From NCBI GenBank assembly GCA_964510965.1, contig CAZECX010000001.1:13582-77581 (forward strand): a stretch of 64,000 bases of DNA, written 5' to 3'. This DNA comes from an uncultured Nitrospina sp. (GTDB taxonomy: Bacteria > Nitrospinota > Nitrospinia > Nitrospinales > VA-1). Within the stretch, counting starts at the first letter, position 1. The number at the start of each line of letters is the position of its first letter. Positions 7,402 through 44,522 of the stretch are shown one piece after another. The notes under the pieces are model-generated. The model was given only the letters and a program-made list of their open reading frames with translations, ran no database searches and was not told the origin of the DNA. A program made the translations under genes and the position numbers.

Positions 7402-8754
7402 CTAATCTTTTTTTGGTTCTTCTTTATAAAATTCAAACTCGCAGCTGGAATAAATAAAATTCATAGTCTTTTGCCCCAACAATTTGGTAGTCGTTTGACT
7501 CAGGGACTCAGGATTCGACATAATTCGTTTTTGAATGTCTTCAATCTTTTGTTTGGTTTGCTCTGCCAACAATTCATACTCGGCTTCCATATCCTGTTGC
7601 GTGATATGAATATTCTCAGCCTGCGCAATCGATTCCAAGGCCATATATCCTTTGGTATTGAAGATGGCTTTTTCTCGCCATTCCTTCTGTGCTTTTTCAG
7701 GCTCAAATCCAGAATCTTCAATCTTCATACCCGATTGCGCGATTTGAAATTTCATCCCTTCAATCATAAATTTCAGTTCACGCTCTATAATTGATTCCGG
7801 CGGCATAGCATCCGTTTCTTTAACAAGCATATTGAAAATATCTTCTTTAACTTTGAGTTCCTCTTGCTGATCTTTATGGCTTTGAAGATCTACTTTAATC
7901 GCGCGGCGCAGATCATCAACCGTATCAAAACCTTCTCTCTTGGCAATTTCAGTCGTCAATTCAGGAAGACTCAGTTGTTTAACTTCTTTGAGTTTAATCT
8001 TAAATGTAGCCCTGTCATCTTCCTGCTCTTCATTTGCACCAGGAATTGGAAAACTCATTCGCCGCGTTTTATTATTCCAGTTGGGCGGAAGTATCACCTT
8101 GATCTCAAACTCTTCCCCCGCCTTATGACCAATCAACTGATCTTCAAAACCGTCCAGCATTTTCTTTTCACCAATTCTAAGCTCAAAGTCATCAGCCTTT
8201 TCATTTTCCATCGGCTGATCATCAACATATCCCTGAAAATCTATCTTTAAAATATCCCCTTTTGCGGCAACATAATCTGTTGGCATTACCTCCAATGAAC
8301 CGTGACGGCTTAGAACTTTTTCAAAAGTCTCTTTTACTTCTTCGTCCGTGACAACAGCTTCCTTCTTTTTGAATTTCAAGCCTTTGTAATTCTTTATTTG
8401 TATCTCAGGCTTTATATCCAAGATCACTGAAAACTTTAAGGGCTCATTCCTCTTAATATCCTGCAATCCTGCATGGTCAATTTCCGGTTGACCCGTGGGA
8501 CGAAGTCCAGTTTTATGAAGAGCTTCTTCATAGTATTCCTGCATTAAATCCTGAAACATTTGCCCAAAAGATTGCATGGGGACCTGTTTTTCAAGAACCT
8601 TTTGTGGAATTTTCCCAGGTCGAAACCCCGGCATCTTCATTTCCCGATTCAACTGCTTATAAGCATCATTGACTCGTTTGGAGACCTCCTCCTCCGGGAT
8701 GGTGATATTTAATTTGCGTTTCAGCTCTTCTAATTCTTCAACATCGTATTCCAT
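7402..8754 (-). CDS. tig: Trigger factor
   Basis: 450 aa. N-terminal ribosome-binding signature GFRPGKIP, a central FKBP-like region and a C-terminal helical arm. Confidence 0.9.
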   Translation of the reverse strand: MEYDVEELEELKRKLNITIPEEEVSKRVNDAYKQLNREMKMPGFRPGKIPQKVLEKQVPMQSFGQMFQDLMQEYYEEALHKTGLRPTGQPEIDHAGLQDIKRNEPLKFSVILDIKPEIQIKNYKGLKFKKKEAVVTDEEVKETFEKVLSRHGSLEVMPTDYVAAKGDILKIDFQGYVDDQPMENEKADDFELRIGEKKMLDGFEDQLIGHKAGEEFEIKVILPPNWNNKTRRMSFPIPGANEEQEDDRATFKIKLKEVKQLSLPELTTEIAKREGFDTVDDLRRAIKVDLQSHKDQQEELKVKEDIFNMLVKETDAMPPESIIERELKFMIEGMKFQIAQSGMKIEDSGFEPEKAQKEWREKAIFNTKGYMALESIAQAENIHITQQDMEAEYELLAEQTKQKIEDIQKRIMSNPESLSQTTTKLLGQKTMNFIYSSCEFEFYKEEPKKD

Positions 8755-8795
8755 TTCAAAACCTTTATATATTTTTGCGAATGCTCAATTAGCTA

Positions 8796-9956
8796 TTACC
8801 CTATTTCCACAGGGAGTGGCCCGGTGCCAAATTTCTCGAGTATCATTTGATCGATTTCTTTTTTTAATTGCCCCAGAATTTCCTCATAGGAAAAAGATCC
8901 CAGAGTTTCCGTACCTTTTTTCAAATTAACATGTGTCGGACCACACCACATTCCCAAATCAGCATCATCCGTTTCCCCCGGCCCATTTACTCTGCAACCC
9001 ATTACAGCAATCGTCAGCTTATATTTTTCCGCATACTCTGTCATTTTGCGAACATCCTGAGCCAAATCGACAAACTTATCGTTTTCAACTCGGGAACAAC
9101 TGGGGCAAGCTATGATATTCAATCCATCCAGAAAATTTTCTGGTACGGAGCGGAACCTACCGTTCGCAATATCGTCCAGAAGCTCTCGACCGACATCTAT
9201 TTCCTGGCCCTTGTCATCGTTTGGCAAAGTTAGAGAGACGCGGATAGTATCGCCAATTCCAGCCGAGATCAACTGCTCAAACGCGATTCTGGTTTTGATG
9301 ATGCCTTCCGGCGGAAGCCCTGCCTCCGTAACACCTAAGTGCAAAGGAACATCGGGCCTTTCTGCGGCAAACCGACGATTGGCATCGATCACTTTGGCAG
9401 AATCAGAATCTTTGAGCGAAACACAATAATTTTCAAATTTCATCTCATCGAGCATCTCGCAATGATCCACAGCACACCGCACCATGGCCTCGGTGGAGTC
9501 GTCTTTGTATCTCTCTTTATAATCCGGGTCGACAGAACCGCAGTTGACTCCAATTCGAAGGGCGCAATCATTTTCCCTTGCTGCCTCAACAATAAATTCA
9601 ACTTTTTCGCGAATGGATTTTGCTTTCTCAAGATGAAAAAGGTGGCCGGGATTATATCGAATCTTATTCACCCAGGGAGCAACAATGGGAGCAAGTTTAT
9701 AATTCTCCTGCAAATCCACAGACCATGTGCTATCGGGAAATTTTTTCCGCAATTCTTTGAGTGCTTCTACATCTTTTTCGCTATCCACTGCGATTCGTAT
9801 GACATCTGCATTGGCTTTTTCCAGTACTTCTATCTGCCTTGCAGTTGCAGTCAAATCCTGAGTTTGCGTCGCTGCCATACTTTGAACGGCTATGGGAGAG
9901 TCTCCTCCAATCACCAATTTGCCAATACGAATTTTTCGTGTTTTTCTTTGATTCAT
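8796..9956 (-). CDS. ispG: 4-hydroxy-3-methylbut-2-enyl diphosphate synthase
   Basis: [21 protein letters not shown]-terminus, C-terminal Fe-S cysteines ([21 protein letters not shown]). I prefer ATG 9956 (MNQRKTRK, preceded by AGGAAAG) to the ORF-track start at 9995. Confidence 0.9.
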
Positions 9957-33837: not shown

Positions 33838-34512
33838 TTATTTGTACATGAGGGAAACTAGTTGGACACGGGCATGCACCCGGAACTTGGAGTAAATCCT
33901 TTTTAAATGATCTTTTACGGTGTGTGGACTCAAATGTATCTTCTTGGCGATTTCTTTATCACTCAAACCCTCGCAAATTAATCGGGCCACATCGGCTTCC
34001 CTTTGAGTCAAGCCCGCTTCCTGCATTAAAAAGGTCATTTGTTTTTCAAGCTTATTATCGCCACTTACCAAAATTTCATTTTCCGCTTCAACCTTTTCAA
34101 ACATTTTCAGGTTTTCGCGTGCCCGTTTGGAAAGAGTTTTCATGATGGCCATCAAAGTATCCGGATAAGAAGACAATTCGGAATGAAACAAATCATGAGT
34201 GATTTCCAAGAGATGAGTGACACCCGAAGAAACTACCTTTGCAGACCGAGGCTTGGATTCAATCAAAGCCATTTCTCCAATATATTCCCCCATACCTCGG
34301 ACGGCGATCTCGGTTTCGTGTTTGTTAACAGTCACCCCACCAGAGAGAATGACGAACATGGAGTTACCATCATCACCATCTTCAAACAACGTCTCCCCAT
34401 CTTCTAAACTTTTATACAAGCATTCATTCGCAACTGATTCTAAAACATCTTGAGGAAGTTTTTTCAGAAAATCGATTTTAGATAGAAAGTCTATATTTGT
34501 TAACTCAGACAC
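33838..34512 (-). CDS. cNMP-binding domain / LuxR-type HTH transcription regulator
   Basis: GTG start 4 nt after AAGGTG. N-terminal CAP-type cNMP domain with phosphate-binding cassette GEYIGEMALIESKPRSA. C-terminal GerE/LuxR HTH LTQREADVARLICEGLSDKEIAKKIHLSPHTVKDHLKRIYSKF. Confidence 0.8.
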   Translation of the reverse strand: MSELTNIDFLSKIDFLKKLPQDVLESVANECLYKSLEDGETLFEDGDDGNSMFVILSGGVTVNKHETEIAVRGMGEYIGEMALIESKPRSAKVVSSGVTHLLEITHDLFHSELSSYPDTLMAIMKTLSKRARENLKMFEKVEAENEILVSGDNKLEKQMTFLMQEAGLTQREADVARLICEGLSDKEIAKKIHLSPHTVKDHLKRIYSKFRVHARVQLVSLMYK

Positions 34513-34638: not shown

Positions 34639-36108
34639 TTATAATTGGAAATTTAATCCTGCTAAAAACACATTTTGATTAAAATCCACGGAAACTAAAT
34701 TTGAATTGCTCATGACTCGGGTATAGCTAATATCAAAGTCTATATGATCTTTTATGATAGGTAGATTAAACAAAAGGTTAAGAGTGTGCTTGGAATCAAA
34801 ACGCGGCACACCGATAGATGAATTAATATTCTCAAAATTCTTAAGATAATAGTTATATGTAAATTGGGTTGATATTTCGAAGGGTCCGGGAATTTTTATT
34901 CCGCCCGTTGCTGAATGTCCCAAATAGTCCAACTCGAAATCCTCGGTATCATCCATGTCAAAAGCATAACTGGCAAACAAGTAGGCTTTCGCATCCATAA
35001 AAAACCAGAACTGCGTCAAACTCCATACATGAGATGTTCCATCCCGGGCATTACCCACAAAATAATCGTTAATATTATAGGTGTAAGATAGATTTGTGTA
35101 GAAGTTGGGATCGGGTGCATAACCCAGACGCGGGGTGATGCTGTGAGTTGCATTTAAATCAGCTCGATCCAGGAAACTGTAATTATAATTAAAACTTATA
35201 TCACCATCCCAATCACCGGAACCATAACCCACAGAGGAATAAAAGTCATGCGATGTGCTGTCGAACTGCGGCAGTTTGTCCCATCTCTGTTGTGAAAAGT
35301 CATAGCCGATTTCAATTTCCGAGTTTTCGAAAGGTTCGAATTGGGTTCCTACGCTGAGCAGATAACCTATAGATCTATCCTGCTCGTTGGAAACAATGTC
35401 CTGATTTGATACGATGACATTATCATCGTATTGAGAATTAATTTCAGCCTTGATCCACCAGTTTTTTTCACCCTCCGACTCAACCCCCAACAGCTTTAGC
35501 ATATCTTTGGCTTGCCCTGCTGTGGAAGTATCCGGGCCTTCTTCTACAGCCAATTGAAAAGCCAGTTTTGCCTCTTCTTCTTTTTTACTTTCCAAATATC
35601 CCACACCAATTTGAAAATAGGAAATCTGGTTTAAGGAAGGATCCAGACCCATTGCGGATTGAAAAAATATTAAGGACTCCTCATATTTTTCCATCTGCTG
35701 CAGGGTGAACCCCATGAACAAATTCGCAGTGGCATTTTGGCGATTATTCTCCAACACCTTTTCAAATTTTTGAATGGCCTCAGAGTTGGATTTGAGCTTA
35801 AAAAGCACTATTCCCAATTGTAAGTGCGCGCCTTTGTATTTGGGGTCTTTTTGCAAAACATTTTCAAAAGTCTGCCTGGCCTGTTCCAGCTTTTTTGCTT
35901 TTGCTAAGGTGAGGCCCTTGTAATAGAGAGCTTCGAGATTGGAAGGATCTTTATCTAGGATTTTTGAGAATTCGCTTAGAGCCTGATTATATTTCCCTTC
36001 ATTGTAAAATTGAAGGCCCAGAACCAAAGGAGAGGAAGATGTTTCTTGTGCCTGAGTGGACGCAACGTACAGAGTCAAATATAGAAATAGGTACAAAAAA
36101 AATTTCAC
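34639..36108 (-). CDS. Outer-membrane protein: N-terminal TPR domain plus C-terminal beta-barrel
   Basis: Signal peptide MKFFLYLFLYLTLYVASTQAQE, about 5 TPRs up to roughly aa 200, then about 280 aa of alternating amphipathic strands rich in Y/D/N/S/F, ending GLNFQL. Confidence 0.6.
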   Translation of the reverse strand: MKFFLYLFLYLTLYVASTQAQETSSSPLVLGLQFYNEGKYNQALSEFSKILDKDPSNLEALYYKGLTLAKAKKLEQARQTFENVLQKDPKYKGAHLQLGIVLFKLKSNSEAIQKFEKVLENNRQNATANLFMGFTLQQMEKYEESLIFFQSAMGLDPSLNQISYFQIGVGYLESKKEEEAKLAFQLAVEEGPDTSTAGQAKDMLKLLGVESEGEKNWWIKAEINSQYDDNVIVSNQDIVSNEQDRSIGYLLSVGTQFEPFENSEIEIGYDFSQQRWDKLPQFDSTSHDFYSSVGYGSGDWDGDISFNYNYSFLDRADLNATHSITPRLGYAPDPNFYTNLSYTYNINDYFVGNARDGTSHVWSLTQFWFFMDAKAYLFASYAFDMDDTEDFELDYLGHSATGGIKIPGPFEISTQFTYNYYLKNFENINSSIGVPRFDSKHTLNLLFNLPIIKDHIDFDISYTRVMSNSNLVSVDFNQNVFLAGLNFQL

Positions 36109-36235: not shown

Positions 36236-37549
36236 TTAGCAAGCCTTCTTTCCTTTACCTTTGCATTGTCCAGATTTTCCTGGCGATCCCCCTTTATTTT
36301 CTTTATCCTGCCCAACTCTCTTGGTTGCACCTTTAGCTTCCCTTTTAGCAACTTCCTTTCGAAATTTTTTCGCAATTTTTCCAGGATTAGAAGATTTGAA
36401 AGAAGGTTTGAATTTGGTGTTTTTAGGTACGACATCGCCCCCGCCTAATGAAGCGAGTTTGGTATCAGTTTTTCTACCTCGTTTTTCAACCTCATCTTTT
36501 TTCAAAAATTTGGATTTTGCGGTTCTAACACCTTTACCTCTTTTTACACCTTTTCCCTTAAACTTACCTTTGCCCTTGTTTTTAAACTTACCAAGACCTT
36601 TACCTTTGCCGGCCTTTACTACTGCTTTGGCTGCACCCCTGGCAATTTCCTGAATCTGGCCTTTCGCAACAATGGATTTTTTTCCGAGCTGTCCATTGGC
36701 AAGGATAGGAGCGGTTTCAATAGAGCCTGAGATACCTATAAAGGAGGTCTTGCCGGCTTTATCAACTGCCACTACAAATTCCGTCCCGCGCACCCCTGCA
36801 ACTGCAGTTGGGGTCACTACTTTAAAACTGGAACCCTTTGCCTTACCTTTGGTCACCACAAACCTTACGGTTCCCTCGGCGACATTGACCACGGTTTGCC
36901 GCAAGTCTTTTTCTGGATCATAGATATGCTTTTTAATTCTGATATTGGAATTTTCTCCAATGGTCAAAGAACTTTTATCATCGAAGGTGAAAGAAGCTTC
37001 CGAATCCTTTTTAGTTTTGATTTTGTCATTCATAAAAACGGGAGAAGCCAACTGAACACTTTCCCCTTTTTTCTCGCCCTTATGAAACTGCAGGATTTTT
37101 CCATCCGCAGCTGTTGCAATGCCAACATCAGCGGATTTGACAACGCCTTTATCTTTTAGAAACAGTTTTTGTTCGAACAAGTTTCTGCCGGGAGGCTCTC
37201 CCGAAAGAGCATAGGCAACACGCACGAATTCCTGCTCTGTCATCCTTTCTTTAGGATCTTTTTCGGACAGGACTTTAAACCCGCGAATTTTTAAAATATT
37301 TGCAGTTTTGGAATACAACTCTTCCTGCGATAATTTAGCGTGGTTTTTGGGAAGAAAAGGATGATCCGGCTGATTTTCAGCTATCGTTGCAACAAACTCA
37401 CCCCGAGTCAGTTCAGAGTTATCCGTGCTTGCAGAGATGAGCACCAAAGTACAGGTGGCAAATAATAGGAATTGAAAAAGAGGGTTTAAAAAACCTTTTC
37501 TACTTTTCTTAAAAAATTCTTTATCAAAAACTCTATTAAAATTTCCCAT
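36236..37549 (-). CDS. FecR-domain envelope protein with Lys/Gly-rich C-terminal tail
   Basis: N-terminal hydrophobic anchor (LFQFLLFATCTLVLISA). Central FecR fold (SFTFDDKSSLTIGENSNIRI...VVTPTAVAGVRGTEFVV). Last 124 aa contain 36 Lys by my count (GKGKGLGKFKNKGKGKFKGKG...). Confidence 0.7.
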   Translation of the reverse strand: MGNFNRVFDKEFFKKSRKGFLNPLFQFLLFATCTLVLISASTDNSELTRGEFVATIAENQPDHPFLPKNHAKLSQEELYSKTANILKIRGFKVLSEKDPKERMTEQEFVRVAYALSGEPPGRNLFEQKLFLKDKGVVKSADVGIATAADGKILQFHKGEKKGESVQLASPVFMNDKIKTKKDSEASFTFDDKSSLTIGENSNIRIKKHIYDPEKDLRQTVVNVAEGTVRFVVTKGKAKGSSFKVVTPTAVAGVRGTEFVVAVDKAGKTSFIGISGSIETAPILANGQLGKKSIVAKGQIQEIARGAAKAVVKAGKGKGLGKFKNKGKGKFKGKGVKRGKGVRTAKSKFLKKDEVEKRGRKTDTKLASLGGGDVVPKNTKFKPSFKSSNPGKIAKKFRKEVAKREAKGATKRVGQDKENKGGSPGKSGQCKGKGKKAC

Positions 37550-37747: not shown

Positions 37748-39886
37748 TCAAATTTCTAAACGGGGTTTAACCAGTATATGAGCAAGGCTTTCCGGTAGCA
37801 ACGGTTTTTCAACAATATTCCCTTGAATTACATCACAACGGTATTTGCGTAGTAGTTCTTTCTGCTCTTTGGTTTCCACTCCTTGGGCAGCAGTCCTTAA
37901 ATCAAGGCTTTTGCCGACAGTAATAATAGTGTTGGTAATAGCGTCATTGGCTCCTGTGAATAATCCATTCACCAATCCTCGATCGATATTCAATCCGCTC
38001 AAAGGTAAGGTAGCCAAGGTGTTTAGGGAAGATAACCCCATACTGAAATTATCAATGATAATTTTAGCCCCCATTTCATTGACTTCATTCAATTGCTTTT
38101 TATGTTCAGCCGAAGTTTTTACTAAATTGATTTCTGGAATTTCTATTTCAACAAATCCACTGGGAAGCCCCGATTTACTAATAAAATTATCCAGGGTTTG
38201 AGAAAATTTGGGGTTCATCAGTTGACTATCAGAAATATTTAATGCCAGAGGCAAGGGTGTTAATCCGTCTTTTTTCCAAATCGCGATTTGTTTTTGAATA
38301 TTTTCAAATACCCATTCACCGATGGGCAGCATCAATCCTTTTTCTTCTGCAAAGGGCAGAAAGTTATCGGGTAAAATAATGCCTTTCTCGGGGTGATTCC
38401 ATCGAAGTAATACTTCAAGTCCAGTACATACACCTGTTTTGGAATCCACCTTGGGTTGGTAATTTAAAATAAAGGCATCGTCTTCCAAGGCTCTGTGTAA
38501 ATCATTTTTGAGGTCAAATCGTTTTTGAGCCACTGAAAGCAATTCAGGGTCATGCATAAAATAAGTATTTTTCCCCTGAGCCTTGGCCCGATACATCGCC
38601 GCATCTGCATTTTTATAAAGCGTTTCCACATCATTGCCGTCATTGGGGTAAACCGCGATGCCAATGCTGAAACTGGAAAAGATTTCGTGTGATTCAATTT
38701 GAAAAGCGGGCTTGAGAGATTCAACTATCCTTTCCGCAAGCACAGTAGAATAATTGCTGTCCTTCAACCCACTCAAAAGAACAACAAACTCATCACCTCC
38801 AATTCTGGCAACAGTGTCTTCCCCTCTAAGCAATCCGGTCAAACGTCCTGCGACTTGCTTTAATAATTCATCACCCACAGAATGGCCCAGGGTGTCATTC
38901 ACGGTTTTAAAGTCATCCATATCGAGAAACAACAATGCGAACTTTTGCTTGTTACGATCCGAATGAGCAAGAGCCAGCTGAATTCTATCGTTGATCATAT
39001 TGCGGTTGGGTAAATTAGTCAGAGGATCAAAAAAAGCCATTCGCTTCATTTTGTATTCCATCTGTCGAAACTCGGTGAGATCTCTTACAATTACAACAAG
39101 GGCGCTGGTATCCCGGAGGACCATCAATTTCATTTTTACTTTTATAGGATAGACCGTGCCATCCTTTCTCTTTTGAAAAGCTTCAAAAACCTGAATAATT
39201 TTGCTTCCACTTTTAAGTGTTTCAGCGTATTCATCAAATTCGAGTCGTGATTGATCTTCCCAGAATTCATAAAGAGCCCTGCCCTTAAGTTGACTCTTGG
39301 AATAACCCATGTTCTTTGTAGCCACAGAATTGGTTTGGGTAATTTTGTAATCTTTGTCATCAATGACAAAAATTTCGTTGCTGGTATCGTCCAGCACCTG
39401 TGATAATTTTTCAGCGTTGTCTTTCGTCAGAACCAACTCGGCTTTCATGTCGTCCATGACATCTAAATCAGTACGAGCTCTTTGTGAAAGAGTCTTTAGC
39501 AGAGCAAACAGGGATTGGGAGTGGTCAGAAAATTCTTTTTGAAATTTTTCATCGGTAATTTCAAGCAATTGCGATTGCACTTCTGCACGAATGGTTGCAG
39601 ATCGGGGTTCAGATCCAATCAAACCCATTTCACCGATGTATTCACTGGTCTTTCTTCTGGCAATCACCTTGTTCTTTTTATAAACCAGCAATTCTCCAGA
39701 AAGGATGATGTACATGGCATTAGAAACATCTCCTTCTTCAAATAATACTTCAAGGGCTTCCAAAGTAACTATTCGGGAAGAGCGCGCCAATTTTGCAAGC
39801 GTTTCTTCAGAAAAAAAGCTTAAAAAATCAACATTCCTAAGCTGCTCTAAGTTTTCGACTTCATCCATTGTAAAATTTTCTGCCAT
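37748..39886 (-). CDS. cNMP-binding / PAS / GGDEF / degenerate-EAL protein (predicted diguanylate cyclase)
   Basis: 712 aa. cNMP cassette SEYIGEMGLIGSEPRSA, a PAS domain, then GGDEF (aa 363-367, nt 38786-38800) with RGED I-site. The EAL half reads EVLLR...DNFSMGLSS...NID...QGVE. Confidence 0.85.
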   Translation of the reverse strand: MAENFTMDEVENLEQLRNVDFLSFFSEETLAKLARSSRIVTLEALEVLFEEGDVSNAMYIILSGELLVYKKNKVIARRKTSEYIGEMGLIGSEPRSATIRAEVQSQLLEITDEKFQKEFSDHSQSLFALLKTLSQRARTDLDVMDDMKAELVLTKDNAEKLSQVLDDTSNEIFVIDDKDYKITQTNSVATKNMGYSKSQLKGRALYEFWEDQSRLEFDEYAETLKSGSKIIQVFEAFQKRKDGTVYPIKVKMKLMVLRDTSALVVIVRDLTEFRQMEYKMKRMAFFDPLTNLPNRNMINDRIQLALAHSDRNKQKFALLFLDMDDFKTVNDTLGHSVGDELLKQVAGRLTGLLRGEDTVARIGGDEFVVLLSGLKDSNYSTVLAERIVESLKPAFQIESHEIFSSFSIGIAVYPNDGNDVETLYKNADAAMYRAKAQGKNTYFMHDPELLSVAQKRFDLKNDLHRALEDDAFILNYQPKVDSKTGVCTGLEVLLRWNHPEKGIILPDNFLPFAEEKGLMLPIGEWVFENIQKQIAIWKKDGLTPLPLALNISDSQLMNPKFSQTLDNFISKSGLPSGFVEIEIPEINLVKTSAEHKKQLNEVNEMGAKIIIDNFSMGLSSLNTLATLPLSGLNIDRGLVNGLFTGANDAITNTIITVGKSLDLRTAAQGVETKEQKELLRKYRCDVIQGNIVEKPLLPESLAHILVKPRLEI

Positions 39887-40101
39887 TAAATCTGACCTGG
39901 AGCTATTATAGATAAAAAACCTGAATCAATTATAGTTTCTATAAACAAAAACAAAATCCCCCCCGTTTAAGGGATAAGCAAAAAACTATTGTTTTTAAAT
40001 GATTTAACTAATTATTTGTTACACAATATTGACATTATTTTTAATTTCAGTCAGTGATGCGTAAAATTACAATCATTGGAATTAATGGAACAGACAAGTA
40101 A

Positions 40102-42363
40102 TTGATAAATAATAAAAAAAAATATTCCATCTATTTTTCTGGGTTGGTAATTACTTTAGCAGTTTTGTGTGCCTATGTGGTTTTTCCAAATGCATTAACA
40201 CGTCTGGATTATCTATTTCAAAATTTTCATTTCCAACTACGCGGACCCATTAAACCTACGTCCAATATTGTTATCGGAAGAATTGATGAAAAAAGTATAG
40301 ATACTTTGGGAAGATGGCCCTGGCCGCGATCGACTTTTGCAAAAATCACTGAAAACCTTTCAAGCTTGAATGCCAAGGTAATTGCTTATGATGTTATTTT
40401 TTCATCTCCTGAAAAATTTCCATCGGAAGAGAATTTGATTGAGCTGGATAAACTGATCTCGGAAAATTCTTCCGCCAAAAATTATTTAAAGAATCTAATA
40501 AACCAAAACAACCCCGACGAAGTTTTTTCAAAAACTCTTTCAGATGGAAGCCCAACGGTTCTGGGTTATTTTTTCCATTTTTCTCCTGATGGTCTTGACC
40601 ATCTTTCTGAGGAGCAACGTCATCAATTTTTTAAAGACATAAAAAAATCACAGTTCAGAGGATTTTTAAAATCCAACGCGGATTTGGATATTTCCCATCT
40701 CCCCTTTCCAAAAGCTTTTGCAATTGAATCTAACCTGGCTATTTTTTCTGATTCCGCATCCGGTTCCGGTTACTTGACTTTTAATGTGGACCTCGATGGC
40801 ATGATCCGACGTTTGCCCTTAATGGTGCGCTATCACGACAGCATCTCTAAAAAGGATTTTTACTTTCCTCCTCTCTCTTTACGAATTCTCGAAACTTATT
40901 TGGATGGGAATTTACTTTTCAGGGTGGGCGAAGGGGGAATGGAAGAAGTCATAATGGATGCGGATGAATCGGTAATCATACCCACAAACTCCAAAGGCGA
41001 ACTGGAAATAAATCATCTTGGGCCTAGAGGGACATTCTCCAGTTTTTCTATCAGCGATCTTTTAAAACCCGAAAAACTATCGGAGCTCAAAGACAAAATA
41101 CAAGGGAATATTGTGTTGATCGGTGCAACTGCGACAGCACTGGAAGATTTAAGGTCAACCCCTTTTGACCCCATCCTGCCGGGGGTGGAAATTCACGCAA
41201 CAATATTGGATAATTTTTTCAATAAATCGTTCCTCTCCCAAGCTTCTCCACTTTACGATTTACTTTTAATAATTATTACGGGGATTTTATGCACCCTTAT
41301 CTACTCCCAAATCAAACCCGTCTCAGGCCTCATCTTTTGGGTATTGAGCAGTGGGCTATTATTTCTTTTAAGTCATTGGACTTTTGTTGAAAAAGGTTTC
41401 TGGTTAACCGATATTTATCCGTTTTTCACCAATACTGGAATAGCAGCTTTAATAATGATTGATCATTTTATGCGTGAAGAAAAACAAACAAAATTTATTA
41501 AAGAGGTTTTTGGACAATATCTATCTCCCCGGGTTGTAAAAGATTTATTAGCAGATCCATCAAGGTTAAAACTGGGGGGTGAGCAAAAAATACTCACCGC
41601 ATTTTTTACTGACCTGGCCAACTTCACCACATTTTCAGAAAAACTATCAGCCGAAGAGCTGGTATCGCTGCTAAACAGCTATTTCACTGAAATGACAGAC
41701 ATCTTGATTGAAAATGATGGAACGCTGGATCGTTATGATGGTGATGCAATCAAAGCCTTCTTTGGAGCCCCCTTATACTTTGAAGATCATGCCAAACGTG
41801 CCTGCTGGACCTGCATTGAAATGCAGGAAAGACTCAGTGAATTGAGAAAAGAATATAAGGAACAGGGAAAACCAGAACTGGTAATGCGGGTAGGTATCAA
41901 CACCGGAGAAATGGTTGTAGGTAATATGGGTTCAAGCACTCGCATGAATTACGGTATGAACGGAGATTCCGTAAACCTGGCCGCCCGTCTTGAAGGAGCC
42001 AACAAACAATACGGGACCTGCACCCTTATAAGTGAATTTACTTACCAGGAAGCGAAAGATTTTATTGAGGTGAGAGAACTCGATACCCTTCGCGTTGTCG
42101 GTCGTTCCACGCCTATAAAAATTTATGAGTTGCTGGGGAAAAAAGGCAGTCAAAATTTTCCAATCGGCTTACCGGATTATTTGGAAGGCCTGAAAAACTA
42201 CAAAGCCCAGAAATGGCAGGCCGCTATTGAGAGCTTTAAAAGAGCCTTAAAAGCTAATCCTGAAGATGGCCCATCACAAACTTATTTGGAGCGCTGCAAA
42301 ATATTCATGGAAGCTTCCCCAGGAGAAGGTTGGGATGGAGTTTTTAACTTGACCAAAAAGTAA
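40102..42363 (+). CDS. CHASE2-sensor class III adenylate/guanylate cyclase
   Basis: 753 aa. TM1, a periplasmic region of about 340 aa (GRWPWPRS is a CHASE2 hallmark), 3 TM helices, then the cyclase domain (FFTDLANFT, YDGDAIKAFFGAP, GDSVNLAARLEG) and a TPR-like tail. TTG start as in the ORF track. Confidence 0.85.
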   Translation: MINNKKKYSIYFSGLVITLAVLCAYVVFPNALTRLDYLFQNFHFQLRGPIKPTSNIVIGRIDEKSIDTLGRWPWPRSTFAKITENLSSLNAKVIAYDVIFSSPEKFPSEENLIELDKLISENSSAKNYLKNLINQNNPDEVFSKTLSDGSPTVLGYFFHFSPDGLDHLSEEQRHQFFKDIKKSQFRGFLKSNADLDISHLPFPKAFAIESNLAIFSDSASGSGYLTFNVDLDGMIRRLPLMVRYHDSISKKDFYFPPLSLRILETYLDGNLLFRVGEGGMEEVIMDADESVIIPTNSKGELEINHLGPRGTFSSFSISDLLKPEKLSELKDKIQGNIVLIGATATALEDLRSTPFDPILPGVEIHATILDNFFNKSFLSQASPLYDLLLIIITGILCTLIYSQIKPVSGLIFWVLSSGLLFLLSHWTFVEKGFWLTDIYPFFTNTGIAALIMIDHFMREEKQTKFIKEVFGQYLSPRVVKDLLADPSRLKLGGEQKILTAFFTDLANFTTFSEKLSAEELVSLLNSYFTEMTDILIENDGTLDRYDGDAIKAFFGAPLYFEDHAKRACWTCIEMQERLSELRKEYKEQGKPELVMRVGINTGEMVVGNMGSSTRMNYGMNGDSVNLAARLEGANKQYGTCTLISEFTYQEAKDFIEVRELDTLRVVGRSTPIKIYELLGKKGSQNFPIGLPDYLEGLKNYKAQKWQAAIESFKRALKANPEDGPSQTYLERCKIFMEASPGEGWDGVFNLTKK

Positions 42364-42419
42364 TTAATAATTAATGTAACGCATACTGCAGCTGTTTTTA
42401 CTTTGAAGAGATTCTATTA

Positions 42420-44522
42420 ATGAATGCAAGGACAACATTAGATGTCTTTAATGAAATAGATTTTCTAAGAGACCTGCCCGGGTTAAATTTTCTCCACGAA
42501 AATGCAAATATTGGAAGATACCAAAAAGGAGATTTCCTGTTTAGAGAAGGGGAAACCGGAGATACCATGTACGTGATTACCGATGGGTGTCTGGAGGTAT
42601 TCAAAGAAAACCGCATCATAGCCAAAAGAACCAAGGGGGAATACCTCGGTGAAATGGCCCTTTTGGGAAATAAAATTCGATCCGCTTCTGTTAAAGCCAC
42701 AACCGATGTTCAAACAATTGAAATCCATGAAAAACATTTTTTAGAATTTTTATCCCTTAATCCTCAGGCCTTTTTACCCCTATTCCAAACTCTTGCCCAT
42801 CGATGGAAAGAGGACTTGGAAAAAATTGATTCTGACAATCTTGAGTTAAAAAAACAAATTCAGTTAAACAGTAGGTATTCTCGCCTCTTAGACGACACCT
42901 TCAACGAAATTTATATTCTTGAAAAAGAAACATATCGAATTCTTCAAGCAAATTCCAAAGCTATTCAAAATCTTGGCTTCACCCACGAAGAATTGAATAA
43001 AACAGTCTTTAGCGATGTATTTGAAAATTTGAAATTGAATGAATTAAAAGAATTATTCGCAACCCTGATTGATAAAAAACAAGTTCAAGTTTCCTTTGAA
43101 AGTGAGAGTAAAAGAAAGGATGGCACAACCTATCCTGTCGAAATACGCATTCAATATTTTGAACTCGAAGATCCCCCGCTGATCTATGCCATTGTCGAAG
43201 ATATCTCAGACAAAAAAGCAATGGAACTGCACATTAAGAAGCTGGCCTTTTACGACACTTTAACCCAATTACCTAATCGAAACTTAATCCGAGATCGTTT
43301 GGAAATCATGCTACCCCGCGCGCAAAGATCAAATTCCAAGGTGGCTGTTTTATCCATGGATTTAGACAACTTTAAATCAATAAATGATTCCCTTGGACAT
43401 GAAGCGGGAGATCAGTTTTTAATCCAAGTGGCGAATCGCTTTGAAGGGATCCTGCGTAAAGAGGATACATTCGGACGTTTGGGTGGTGATGATTTTGTTA
43501 TTCTTCTCCCCAATCTAGAAGATGAATACTTTCCAGCAAAAATGGCGCAACGTGTCCTTGAAATTATGGAGCGGCCCTTCGAATTACAGGAAAAACTATT
43601 TCACTGCAACTTTAGTATTGGAATTGCAATGTTCCCGGATAATGGCAAGGATGTTGAAACAATTTTTAAGAATTCAAACATTGCAATGTATCAGGCCAAA
43701 AAAAATGGTGGCCATACTTACCATATATATGAATCTTCTATGCATGACAAAATCATATCGCGATTGGCTATGGAGCAGAATTTGTGGAATGCAATTAAAA
43801 ATAAAGAATTTAAAATGCATTATCAACCCAAGGTCAACCTGAAAACCGGATTGATTGAAGGATTAGAAGCTCTTATTCGCTGGCCGCAACCAAGTGGTAA
43901 AAATATCTCCCCAGCAGTATTCATTCCCCTTGCCGAGGAAAGCCGACTCATTCATAAAATATGGGATTGGACCCTAGAAACCACATGCGGTCAAATCCAG
44001 GAGTGGTGCCACTTATACGGGAAAGGCATAAAAGTAGGAGTTAACCTGTCGGGCAGACAGTTTGAGCAACCGGACTTAGTTGAAAAAATTAAAAATGTTG
44101 TAATAGCGGAGGGAATCCATCCCAAGTTCCTGGAAATTGAAGTTACTGAAACCGCAGTTATGGCAAATATAAAGGCGGCCATCGATGTATTGGATCAACT
44201 CCGAGATTTCGGGGTCCAAATATCTCTTGACGATTTCGGTTCCGGATATACCTCTCTGGGCTATTTGAAAAAACTCCCCATTAACACCTTGAAAATTGAT
44301 CAATCTTTTATTCGCGATTGTACGGACACCAGCAATTTGGCGATTATTCAGGGCATCATTACCATTTCAAAAAAAATGGGATTTAAAACAATTGCTGAGG
44401 GAGTAGAAATGCAAGATCAGCACGATTTATTAAAGAGTCTTGAGTGCGATCAGTTCCAAGGTTATCTGTGCAGTAAGGCACTCCCGCCTGAAGAAATCGC
44501 TCGTTTAATTTGGCTCGATTGA
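42420..44522 (+). CDS. cNMP-binding / PAS / GGDDF / EAL protein (predicted c-di-GMP phosphodiesterase)
   Basis: 700 aa. cNMP cassette GEYLGEMALLGNKIRSA, a PAS domain, then GGDDF (aa 355-359, nt 43482-43496) with RKED I-site. The EAL set is fully canonical (EALIR, NLS, EVTE, DDFGSGYTSL, KIDQSF, EGVE, QGY). Confidence 0.85.
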   Translation: MNARTTLDVFNEIDFLRDLPGLNFLHENANIGRYQKGDFLFREGETGDTMYVITDGCLEVFKENRIIAKRTKGEYLGEMALLGNKIRSASVKATTDVQTIEIHEKHFLEFLSLNPQAFLPLFQTLAHRWKEDLEKIDSDNLELKKQIQLNSRYSRLLDDTFNEIYILEKETYRILQANSKAIQNLGFTHEELNKTVFSDVFENLKLNELKELFATLIDKKQVQVSFESESKRKDGTTYPVEIRIQYFELEDPPLIYAIVEDISDKKAMELHIKKLAFYDTLTQLPNRNLIRDRLEIMLPRAQRSNSKVAVLSMDLDNFKSINDSLGHEAGDQFLIQVANRFEGILRKEDTFGRLGGDDFVILLPNLEDEYFPAKMAQRVLEIMERPFELQEKLFHCNFSIGIAMFPDNGKDVETIFKNSNIAMYQAKKNGGHTYHIYESSMHDKIISRLAMEQNLWNAIKNKEFKMHYQPKVNLKTGLIEGLEALIRWPQPSGKNISPAVFIPLAEESRLIHKIWDWTLETTCGQIQEWCHLYGKGIKVGVNLSGRQFEQPDLVEKIKNVVIAEGIHPKFLEIEVTETAVMANIKAAIDVLDQLRDFGVQISLDDFGSGYTSLGYLKKLPINTLKIDQSFIRDCTDTSNLAIIQGIITISKKMGFKTIAEGVEMQDQHDLLKSLECDQFQGYLCSKALPPEEIARLIWLD

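Follow-up and report, generated by a model that had tools for sequence, protein, structure and literature searches.

A Nitrospina GGDEF-EAL protein with a decayed cyclase site and a conserved EAL domain, encoded with its mirror-image paralog around a CHASE2 nucleotide cyclase gene

We analysed a stretch of 64,000 nucleotides from an uncultured Nitrospina sp. (GenBank assembly GCA_964510965.1, contig CAZECX010000001.1, positions 13,582 to 77,581 of the forward strand; the whole stretch is called the window below), in which two genes for proteins of cyclic dimeric GMP (c-di-GMP) turnover flank a gene for a class III nucleotide cyclase. One of them, paralog B (42420..44522, + strand), encodes a cyclic nucleoside monophosphate (cNMP)-binding domain, a PAS domain, a GGDEF domain with a degenerate active site and an EAL domain, and we read its product, with a probability of roughly 0.6, as a cytoplasmic cNMP-regulated c-di-GMP phosphodiesterase that would have kept its GGDEF domain as a regulatory nucleotide-binding module. 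The other, paralog A (37748..39886, - strand), shares the four-domain architecture but has a canonical GGDEF domain and a degenerate EAL domain, and is a predicted cNMP-regulated diguanylate cyclase. Nitrospinota are the main marine nitrite oxidisers, and the regulation of surface attachment and lifestyle in them is essentially unknown.

Domain Organisation and EAL Domain of Paralog B

The open reading frame of paralog B is intact, begins with ATG and encodes 700 aa. Pfam profiles placed the cNMP-binding domain at aa 33-112 (42516..42755; PF00027, E 3e-18), the PAS domain at aa 164-264 (42909..43211; PAS_9, E 3e-10), the GGDEF domain at aa 276-431 (43245..43712; E 1e-47, 159 of 161 profile positions covered) and the EAL domain at aa 454-686 (43779..44477; E 2e-68), all on the + strand. 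All four domains are folded in an AlphaFold model made from a 27-sequence alignment (mean predicted local distance difference test score, pLDDT, 87.8), linked by long helices at aa 115-157, 263-277 and 439-460, of which the first bridges the cNMP and PAS domains. The sensor has the characters of a CAP/CRP-type domain, with a modelled beta-roll (pLDDT ~81-93) and the cassette pattern G-E-x-A-L...R-[ST]-A, and it matches the cNMP domains of PKG, PKA, CRP and Bd1971 in sequence. Its phosphate-binding cassette, GEMALLGNKIRSA, occupies aa 77-89 (nt 42648-42686), and the G, E, R, S and A positions of the cassette are invariant in the alignments of A, B and other members of the family. Against the NCBIfam equivalog models (DibA, PdeR/PRK10060, DosP, GepA, HmsP, LapD) B scored under every cut-off, the best being DibA with 449 bits (cut-off 980), and domain-level models alone were passed.

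The EAL motifs listed in a preliminary description of the locus were all recovered: EALIR (aa 483-487), NLS, EIEVTE (572-577), DDFGSGYTSL (604-613), KIDQSF (625-630), EGVE (660-663) and QGY (680-682). Conserved positions are cited below by PleD numbering for GGDEF domains and RocR numbering for EAL domains, and the catalytic positions were tabulated across four groups of family members, among them the tight clade of B (23 sequences) and the clade of A (42 sequences). The ten catalytic, metal-binding and substrate-binding residues of the EAL domain of B, E483, R487, N542, E574, E577, D604, D605, K625, E660 and Q680, correspond to E175, R179, N233, E265, E268, D295, D296, K316, E352 and Q372 of RocR, and are invariant in 22-23 of the 23 members of the tight clade. 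The loop 6 motif DFG(T/A/S)GYSS is represented in B by D604, D605, F606, G607, G609, Y610 and S612, all invariant in the alignment, and the modelled EAL domain superposes on those of MucR, MorA and PdeA with template modelling (TM) scores of 0.89-0.95 (target-normalised). The EAL domain of B is thus most likely a catalytically competent phosphodiesterase, as predicted from its residues.

Decay of the GGDEF Active Site in the Clade of Paralog B

The GGDEF motif of B reads GGDDF at aa 355-359 (nt 43482-43496, codons GGT GGT GAT GAT TTT), with GAT at 43491-43493, and an RKED inhibitory site (I-site) is kept five residues ahead of it (aa 346-349, nt 43455-43466), both as first described. A protein identical to B is on record in public assemblies, where relatives of B are labelled Nitrospina, Nitrospinae or Nitrospinales; GGDDF recurs in 11 cluster representatives with 69-78% identity, with GGNDF and GSDDF in two more; and Asp358 is encoded by GAT in the window and by the synonymous GAC in the ortholog at locus L082. 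The motif is therefore neither a chance event nor a sequencing error. Among 144 unrelated PAS-GGDEF-EAL homologs from the same searches GGDDF was found once and GGDEF 124 times.

The roles of the active-site residues are known from the literature (PMC3509222, PMC12943098, PMC8835794): Mg is coordinated by D327 and E370, guanine is contacted by N335 and D344, the beta and gamma phosphates of GTP are bound by K442 and R446 (PMC3509222, PMC12943098), and the fourth residue of the motif, E371, is a Glu that acts as a cross-dimer catalytic base (PMC8835794). Paralog B departs from the signature of active cyclases, [G/A/S]G[D/E]E[F/Y] with Glu in fourth place, by Asp358. It also departs from them in the phosphate-binding basic pair, of which K427 is present (the K442 position) and the equivalent of R446, an Arg or Lys in active cyclases, is Gly431 (nt 43710-43712). 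Asp314 (D327 position) and Asp357 (E370 position) are retained, and the guanine-binding N335 and D344 are matched by Asn322 and Asp331, so that the lesions of B itself are E371D and R446G, with D327 still present.

Across the tight clade of B the decay goes further. The R446 position is Gly in all 23 members, including those that read GGDEF, against Lys or Arg in all 41 sequences scored from the clade of A and in all 21 from other relatives. The D327 position is Asn in nine sequences, Asp in seven, Gly in six and Ser in one, which means that the Mg-binding Asp has been lost in 16 of 23, and the E371 position is Asp in 13 and Glu in 10. Sporadic changes were also seen (G368A, G369S and E370N once each, D344N twice), and the motif itself varies between GGDDF, GGNDF, GSDDF, AGDEF and GGDEF, to which the wider clade adds SGDEF and GGDKF. 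In contrast, the catalytic GGDEF positions of the clade of A do not vary in 42 sequences, except for one K332E. The I-site residues R359 and D362 and the secondary I-site residue R390 (R378 in B) are each present in 23 of 23 members of the clade of B, as is the guanine-binding N335. The GGDEF domain of B is, to judge from these patterns, under continued constraint, with a frozen I-site and a decaying active site. Elsewhere in the wider family the GGDEF motif has degenerated independently (GGDGF, GEDEF, GEEEF, DGDIF, GGDKF, SGDEF).

The view of B as a degenerate cyclase, which had been drawn from the Glu-to-Asp change, consequently holds for the decayed active site of the whole clade but not for the supposed cause, because R446G is older than the change in the motif. 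We regard GGDDF as a late, secondary lesion in a long drift of the active site in the lineage of B. Its distribution suggests that it is restricted to the nearer relatives of the window and that Asp is the derived state there: at L082, where B is 75% identical and reads GGDDF, the gene order is that of the window, whereas at L083 and L089 (B 67% and 72% identical with GGDEF, cyclase 62-63% identical) B precedes the cyclase gene. This polarity is drawn from the order of the cyclase and B genes and from cyclase similarity, not from trees, and the swap in gene order and the Glu-to-Asp change seem to mark the same sublineage. A single origin of GGDDF was also sought in the trees and is not supported by them, the GGDDF-bearing sequences being grouped in 0-1% of bootstraps. 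Taken together, GGDDF, R446G and the relaxation across the clade, rather than any single codon, indicate that the GGDEF domain of B probably no longer makes c-di-GMP.

The Mirror-Image Paralog A and the Origin of the Pair

Paralog A (712 aa; domains by Pfam and alignment) has the I-site RGED and a canonical GGDEF motif, and its EAL motifs read EVLLR, DNFSMG, NIDRG and AQGVE. In its clade, D296 is replaced by Asn in 39 of 40 sequences, K316 by Asn in 39 of 40, and E352 by Lys, Gln, Pro or Ile in 40 of 40. In the EAL domain of A (37874-38053 in the window), E175, R179, N233, E265, D295 and Q372 are kept clade-wide, and only D296, K316 and E352 are lost. Such a degenerate domain may bind c-di-GMP without hydrolysing it, and could serve as a feedback sensor.

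Pfam confirmed that A and B have the same four domains in the same order and that they flank the cyclase gene. Their reciprocal degeneration, which had been proposed from this genome, proved to be real, quantitative and ancient, and to be a property of two whole clades. Across the same pairs of genomes the identity of the GGDEF domain is 0.83 in A and 0.69 in B, whereas that of the EAL domain is 0.59 in A and 0.73 in B; the cNMP and PAS domains of B are 68% identical each between matched genomes, about as its GGDEF domain (69%). Between A and B, identity from end to end is 35%, with a single 8-residue gap at the N-terminus and interdomain linkers that are all of equal length, and the sensors are 36% (cNMP) and 32% (PAS) identical.

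The clade of B comprises ~30 proteins with 45-78% identity and that of A ~40 proteins with 55-83% identity, and one member of each was found together on several contigs. Neighbour-joining trees (100 bootstraps; full length and each domain separately) grouped the cNMP-PAS-GGDEF-EAL proteins apart from other PAS-GGDEF-EAL proteins, and supported the clade of A (100%), the tight clade of B (100%) and a group of B with the SGDEF-bearing sequences (91-100%). A phylogeny of the paralogs had been suggested as a means to date their duplication; the two clades are clear, but the trees gave neither a deep branching order nor a date. Exclusive grouping of A with B received at most 3% of bootstraps, and a group of A, the canonical protein P0171 and the broad clade of B 3-44%. 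That A and B are sister duplicates is accordingly not supported by the trees, in which fully canonical proteins and proteins with different GGDEF lesions are interspersed with the two. Duplication followed by subfunctionalisation, as first proposed, therefore stands in so far as the two belong to one family as paralogs and diverged in step inside the cluster (genomes group alike in A and in B), while a local duplication was not demonstrated. On the sequence evidence, the paralogy of A and B is old, and each may have been derived independently from a canonical ancestor.

The Linked Cyclase and Its Product

The gene between the paralogs (40102..42363, + strand) encodes a protein of 753 aa with CHASE2 and class III nucleotide cyclase domains (Pfam), which presumably supplies the cNMP. 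The gene and A are divergent, and B begins 56 nt after the cyclase stop, on the cyclase strand. The protein has both of the Asp residues that bind metal, as well as the Asn and Arg of the transition state. The substrate-specifying pair, located by alignment to Cya2, CyaB and CyaC, is Arg544/Gly618 (nt 41731-41733 and 41953-41955), to be compared with Glu/Gly in the guanylate cyclase Cya2 and Lys/Thr in the adenylate cyclases CyaB and CyaC; adenylate cyclases have Lys/Thr or Lys/Asp. Among the 120 homologs listed, Arg/Gly was found in 35, including every ortholog down to 54% identity, Lys/Gly in 68, which form a paralogous clade, and Lys/Thr in 19 more distant relatives. Arg/Gly and Lys/Gly cyclases coexist in one genome of 3.25 Mb (loci L087 and L088).

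Cyclic AMP (cAMP) is our working guess for the product, on the grounds that a change from Lys to Arg is conservative and that the receptors read RSA, as the cassettes of both A and B do. Ser at this position is commoner in binders of cAMP and Thr in binders of cyclic GMP (cGMP), which is a weak hint at most. The idea that the Arg/Gly pair of a cyclase signals another nucleotide, reserved for GGDEF-EAL receptors, was weakened by a B-like protein that stands with a Lys/Gly cyclase at locus L001, and by the same conservative nature of the exchange.

Proposed Mechanism and Known Systems

In the mechanism that we propose, an extracytoplasmic cue would be read by the CHASE2 domain together with the FecR and TPR proteins encoded nearby, upon which the cyclase would make a cNMP (cAMP or cGMP) that could bind to the cNMP domains of B, of A and of a LuxR-type regulator. 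In B the signal would travel along the long C-helix, reach the GGDEF-EAL tandem by way of the PAS domain and set the activity of EAL, its sole catalytic centre, with the GGDEF domain tuning EAL by c-di-GMP at the I-site, by guanosine triphosphate (GTP) in what is left of the active site, or by both. Of the two ligands, c-di-GMP appears at least as likely as GTP, given the missing R446 and the frozen I-site. In A an equivalent relay would set the activity of the cyclase domain, and the degenerate EAL domain would perhaps sense c-di-GMP.

Several points weigh against this reading of B. GGDDF by itself is no proof of inactivity, to go by analogy with GSU1937, which is active, and B retains D327, K332, N335, D344, R366 and K442 together with acidic residues at both motif positions, and so might keep some residual cyclase activity. 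The PAS domain could carry a separate and dominant input. The product of the cyclase is uncertain in view of its unusual Arg/Gly pair. Finally, cyclase and B are probably co-transcribed as judged from their spacing; a terminator scan found no terminator-like site between them, and the promoter and terminator scans gave counts not above shuffled expectation.

The nearest CHARACTERISED relatives of B were taken from sequence and fold matches. In Escherichia coli the genes for the oxygen-sensing pair DosC, a synthase, and DosP, a phosphodiesterase whose GGDEF domain is degenerate, are likewise linked; the two answer to one class of signal and exert antagonistic control of c-di-GMP. Unlike A and B, they have unrelated sensors (globin and haem-PAS) and are not paralogs, and their signal is a gas rather than the nucleotide of a linked cyclase.

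The best match to B in sequence and fold was the GGDEF-EAL tandem of RmcA (PA0575) with GTP bound (5M3C; 42% identity, E 1.8e-103), other top structural matches being MorA, RbdA and DosP, and Bd1971 for the sensor and EAL parts. The nearest relatives with solved structures are active phosphodiesterases or ones stimulated by GTP (PMC10874727). In RmcA and RbdA (PA0861) of Pseudomonas aeruginosa (PDB 5M3C, 5XGB), GTP at the GGDEF domain allosterically raises phosphodiesterase activity (PMC10874727), and such a role is proposed here, as the best available model, for the GGDEF domain that B has kept. Both proteins differ from B in having a canonical GGDEF motif with an R446-type residue, and sensors that are periplasmic or of PAS/LOV type and not cNMP domains; B shares the arrangement of GGDEF directly before EAL, and its closest homology, with the GTP-stimulated phosphodiesterases, but the binding of GTP is doubtful in a protein that lacks the equivalent of R446. 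PdeA (CC3396, GEDEF-EAL) and FimX (GDSIF) also have a degenerate GGDEF domain before EAL, which, as cited in PMC8835794 and PMC8846402, binds GTP and stimulates hydrolysis; their motif lesions and input domains differ from those of B, and the EAL domain of FimX is itself degenerate where that of B is intact.

Closest to B in its input is Bd1971 of Bdellovibrio bacteriovorus (6HQ4, 6HQ5, 6HQ7), an EAL enzyme activated by cAMP or cGMP (PMC6717892, PMC8846402), with an N-terminal CRP-type cNMP sensor and a C-terminal EAL domain (PMC6717892). It has no PAS or GGDEF domain between the two, is ~18% identical to B overall, and, unlike B, has not been reported beside its own cyclase or paired with a mirror-image synthase. 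The logic of the cyclase with A is that of XC_0250 and XC_0249 of Xanthomonas campestris, where a cGMP-activated GGDEF protein is encoded beside a guanylate cyclase (PMC3770947), that is, a class III cyclase is linked to a c-di-GMP enzyme with a cNMP domain. XC_0249 is a synthase only, with neither PAS nor EAL domain, and its locus has no phosphodiesterase partner; XC_0250 is TPR-linked and cytoplasmic, lacks CHASE2 and has other specificity residues than the cyclase of the window.

A change from Glu to Asp at the fourth motif position is shared with B by GSU1937, PA3258 and Bordetella DdpB (PMC8835794, PMC12805831), none of which is paired with a mirror-image paralog as B is. GSU1937 is a Hypr enzyme that, expressed as a fusion, acted in vivo as a synthase of cyclic GMP-AMP (cGAMP) and of c-di-GMP; it was presented as the first GGDDF enzyme known to be active (PMC8835794), and differs from B in lacking an EAL domain and in having the Hypr serine. 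PA3258 (GGDDF/EAL) and DdpB (GGDDF with ESL; activity untested, PMC12805831) have CBS domains and no cNMP sensor. Each component of the system thus has a characterised precedent, and B alone would be unsurprising to a specialist, whereas the four-domain architecture and the conserved pair of oppositely degenerate proteins flanking a cyclase are undescribed in the literature as far as we searched it.

Alternative Explanations

Possible, though on balance unlikely, is that A and B were specialised independently as anciently separate proteins that came to lie, or stayed, beside the cyclase and answer to different inputs (a different nucleotide or the PAS ligand), with no single switch. The lack of a resolved deep branching, with canonical and degenerate relatives interleaved with both clades, is compatible with this, and so are the 32-36% identity of the sensor domains and the expansion of the family in Nitrospinota, where numerous proteins join cNMP-PAS to a kinase or to GGDEF-EAL. 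However, the co-location and co-divergence of both genes with the cyclase persist across genomes whose cyclases are 62-63% identical, and the cassette residues are identical in A and B.

More doubtful is the push-pull switch envisaged in the preliminary description, in which the activities of one bifunctional cNMP-gated ancestor would have been divided between A and B with its interdomain geometry preserved, and a single cNMP would switch synthase and hydrolase in opposite directions. It is made plausible by the equal lengths of the linkers in A and B, which differ by the one N-terminal gap, and by reciprocal control of both activities in a documented case, the bifunctional GGDEF-EAL partner of H-NOX in Shewanella woodyi (PMC8846402). 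The clade-wide reciprocity of the catalytic patterns, the common cNMP cassette, the co-divergence of A and B in the cluster and the existence of family members with both domains canonical, such as that of Nitrospina gracilis, are also in its favour. Yet sequence does not reveal the sign of regulation, the two proteins share 36% identity in the cNMP domain and 32% in the PAS domain, and their exclusive sisterhood is at or below 3% bootstrap. Nor is the pair obligatory, since at L087 the cyclase is accompanied by a single phosphodiesterase-type GGDGF protein and a cNMP-histidine kinase. If such a switch were real, it would be a hard-wired, ultrasensitive converter of an extracellular cue into c-di-GMP in marine nitrite oxidisers, and the clade-specific Arg/Gly pair might then mean a nucleotide other than plain cAMP.

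Paralog B could itself be bifunctional, its GGDDF domain still synthesising c-di-GMP in the manner of GSU1937 and the whole protein toggling between synthase and hydrolase, but this we consider distinctly improbable. An active GGDDF domain is on record (PMC8835794), Asp314, Lys319, Asn322, Asp331, Arg353 and Lys427 are kept, and Asp358 is maintained while its codon varies synonymously between the window and L082. Against these, the phosphate-binding Arg is replaced by Gly in every member of the clade, and near relatives have GGNDF, GSDDF or Asn, Gly or Ser at the D327 position, as if synthesis were not under selection. Moreover, the Hypr serine of GSU1937, which replaces D344 of PleD (Ser348 in GacA), is missing from B, which has Asp331 there, and PA3258, with the GGDDF/EAL combination of B, shows no cyclase phenotype as it is cited in PMC8835794. 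A catalytically dead c-di-GMP receptor of LapD or FimX type, to which the tandem with degenerate GGDEF and intact I-site and weak profile matches to LapD might point, is scarcely credible, because the catalytic residues of the EAL domain and the loop 6 sequence DDFGSGYTSL, which LapD and FimX lack, are intact in B and invariant in its clade.

Two neighbouring family members with stable, opposite catalytic losses and equal linkers, beside the enzyme that presumably makes their ligand, amount to a natural experiment. It bears on the division of synthesis and hydrolysis among tandem GGDEF-EAL proteins, and on the reason why a 'dead' GGDEF domain should be retained when, as here, its I-site is frozen and its active site decays.

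Gene Cluster and Its Conservation in Nitrospinota

On the - strand, at lower coordinates than A, lie three further genes, a cNMP_binding and GerE (LuxR-type helix-turn-helix) transcription factor of 224 aa (33838..34512; Pfam), found in the same place at L082 and L083, a TPR-repeat protein (34639..36108; Pfam, synteny) and a FecR-domain protein (36236..37549; Pfam, synteny). The order in the window is hence cNMP-GerE (-), TPR (-), FecR (-), A (-), cyclase (+), B (+) and ScpA (-). The cNMP-GerE regulator is presumed to be a third cNMP receptor, giving the module a transcriptional output. FecR and TPR both belong to the conserved module of the CHASE2 cyclase, and FecR lies beside the cyclase at L082, L083, L087, L088 and L001; a pairing of FecR with CHASE2 has been described in a Burkholderia operon (PMC5192318).

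A profile search of genome contigs with the alignment of the B clade returned mostly generic GGDEF-EAL proteins (Nitrospinota accounted for three among 80 loci listed), and synteny was therefore drawn from exact-protein look-ups. Adjacency of B and cyclase holds in the window and at L082, L083 and L089 despite the swapped order in the last two; the swapped loci span 10001-14592 of L083 and 778-5224 of L089, against 40102-44522 in the window. At L001 a B-like gene of the wider clade (SGDEF) comes first, then a pair of FecR genes, one gene each for a TPR and a small cNMP protein, and a Lys/Gly cyclase gene. At L087, in a more distant Nitrospinota genome, the Arg/Gly cyclase that accompanies FecR and TPR has a cNMP-PAS histidine kinase/receiver on one side and a family member with GGDGF and canonical EAL on the other; the latter gene (7630-9765, - strand) stands in the position of A, its EAL domain is fully canonical, and it is of phosphodiesterase type. 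In Nitrospina gracilis the family member with both domains canonical is encoded away from any cyclase. By gene order, the cluster of cNMP-LuxR regulator, TPR, FecR, A, cyclase and B is conserved across Nitrospinota, and the FecR/TPR/CHASE2-cyclase unit is a recurring putative sensor module wired to varying cNMP receptors, of which the pair of A and B is one conserved version.

The surroundings of related genes point to a wide expansion of cNMP sensors in Nitrospinota, which is unstudied, and indicate an extensive network from cNMP to c-di-GMP that is likewise unstudied. At least three cNMP_binding-PAS-histidine kinase genes are arrayed beside B-like genes at L084 (1805-9558), L001 (3430-8264) and L085 (12213-14822). 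At L088 (12654-18481) a Lys/Gly cyclase with its own FecR and TPR is neighbour to a Crp-type regulator, with CsgG and curlin-repeat genes in the vicinity, a setting that hints at a link between cNMP signalling and the formation of curli or biofilm. Downstream of the GGDDF ortholog P0013, L090 (2866-5959) contains short cNMP_binding and cNMP-PAS fragments and a transposase of the rve family, and the cluster appears to have been disrupted there by a mobile element.

A search for riboswitches and other known RNAs in the cluster with Rfam gave nothing above noise. In the intergenic region between the divergent A and cyclase genes (39956-40040), the minus strand has at 39975-39956 a hairpin with a T-run behind it that is kept at L082, where the stem differs in sequence (ACCCCCAC...GGGGGT). 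A block of ~50 nt in the same region, including GTTACACAATATTGACA, is conserved between the window and L082 and has no Rfam match; it could be a regulatory site common to the divergent promoters.

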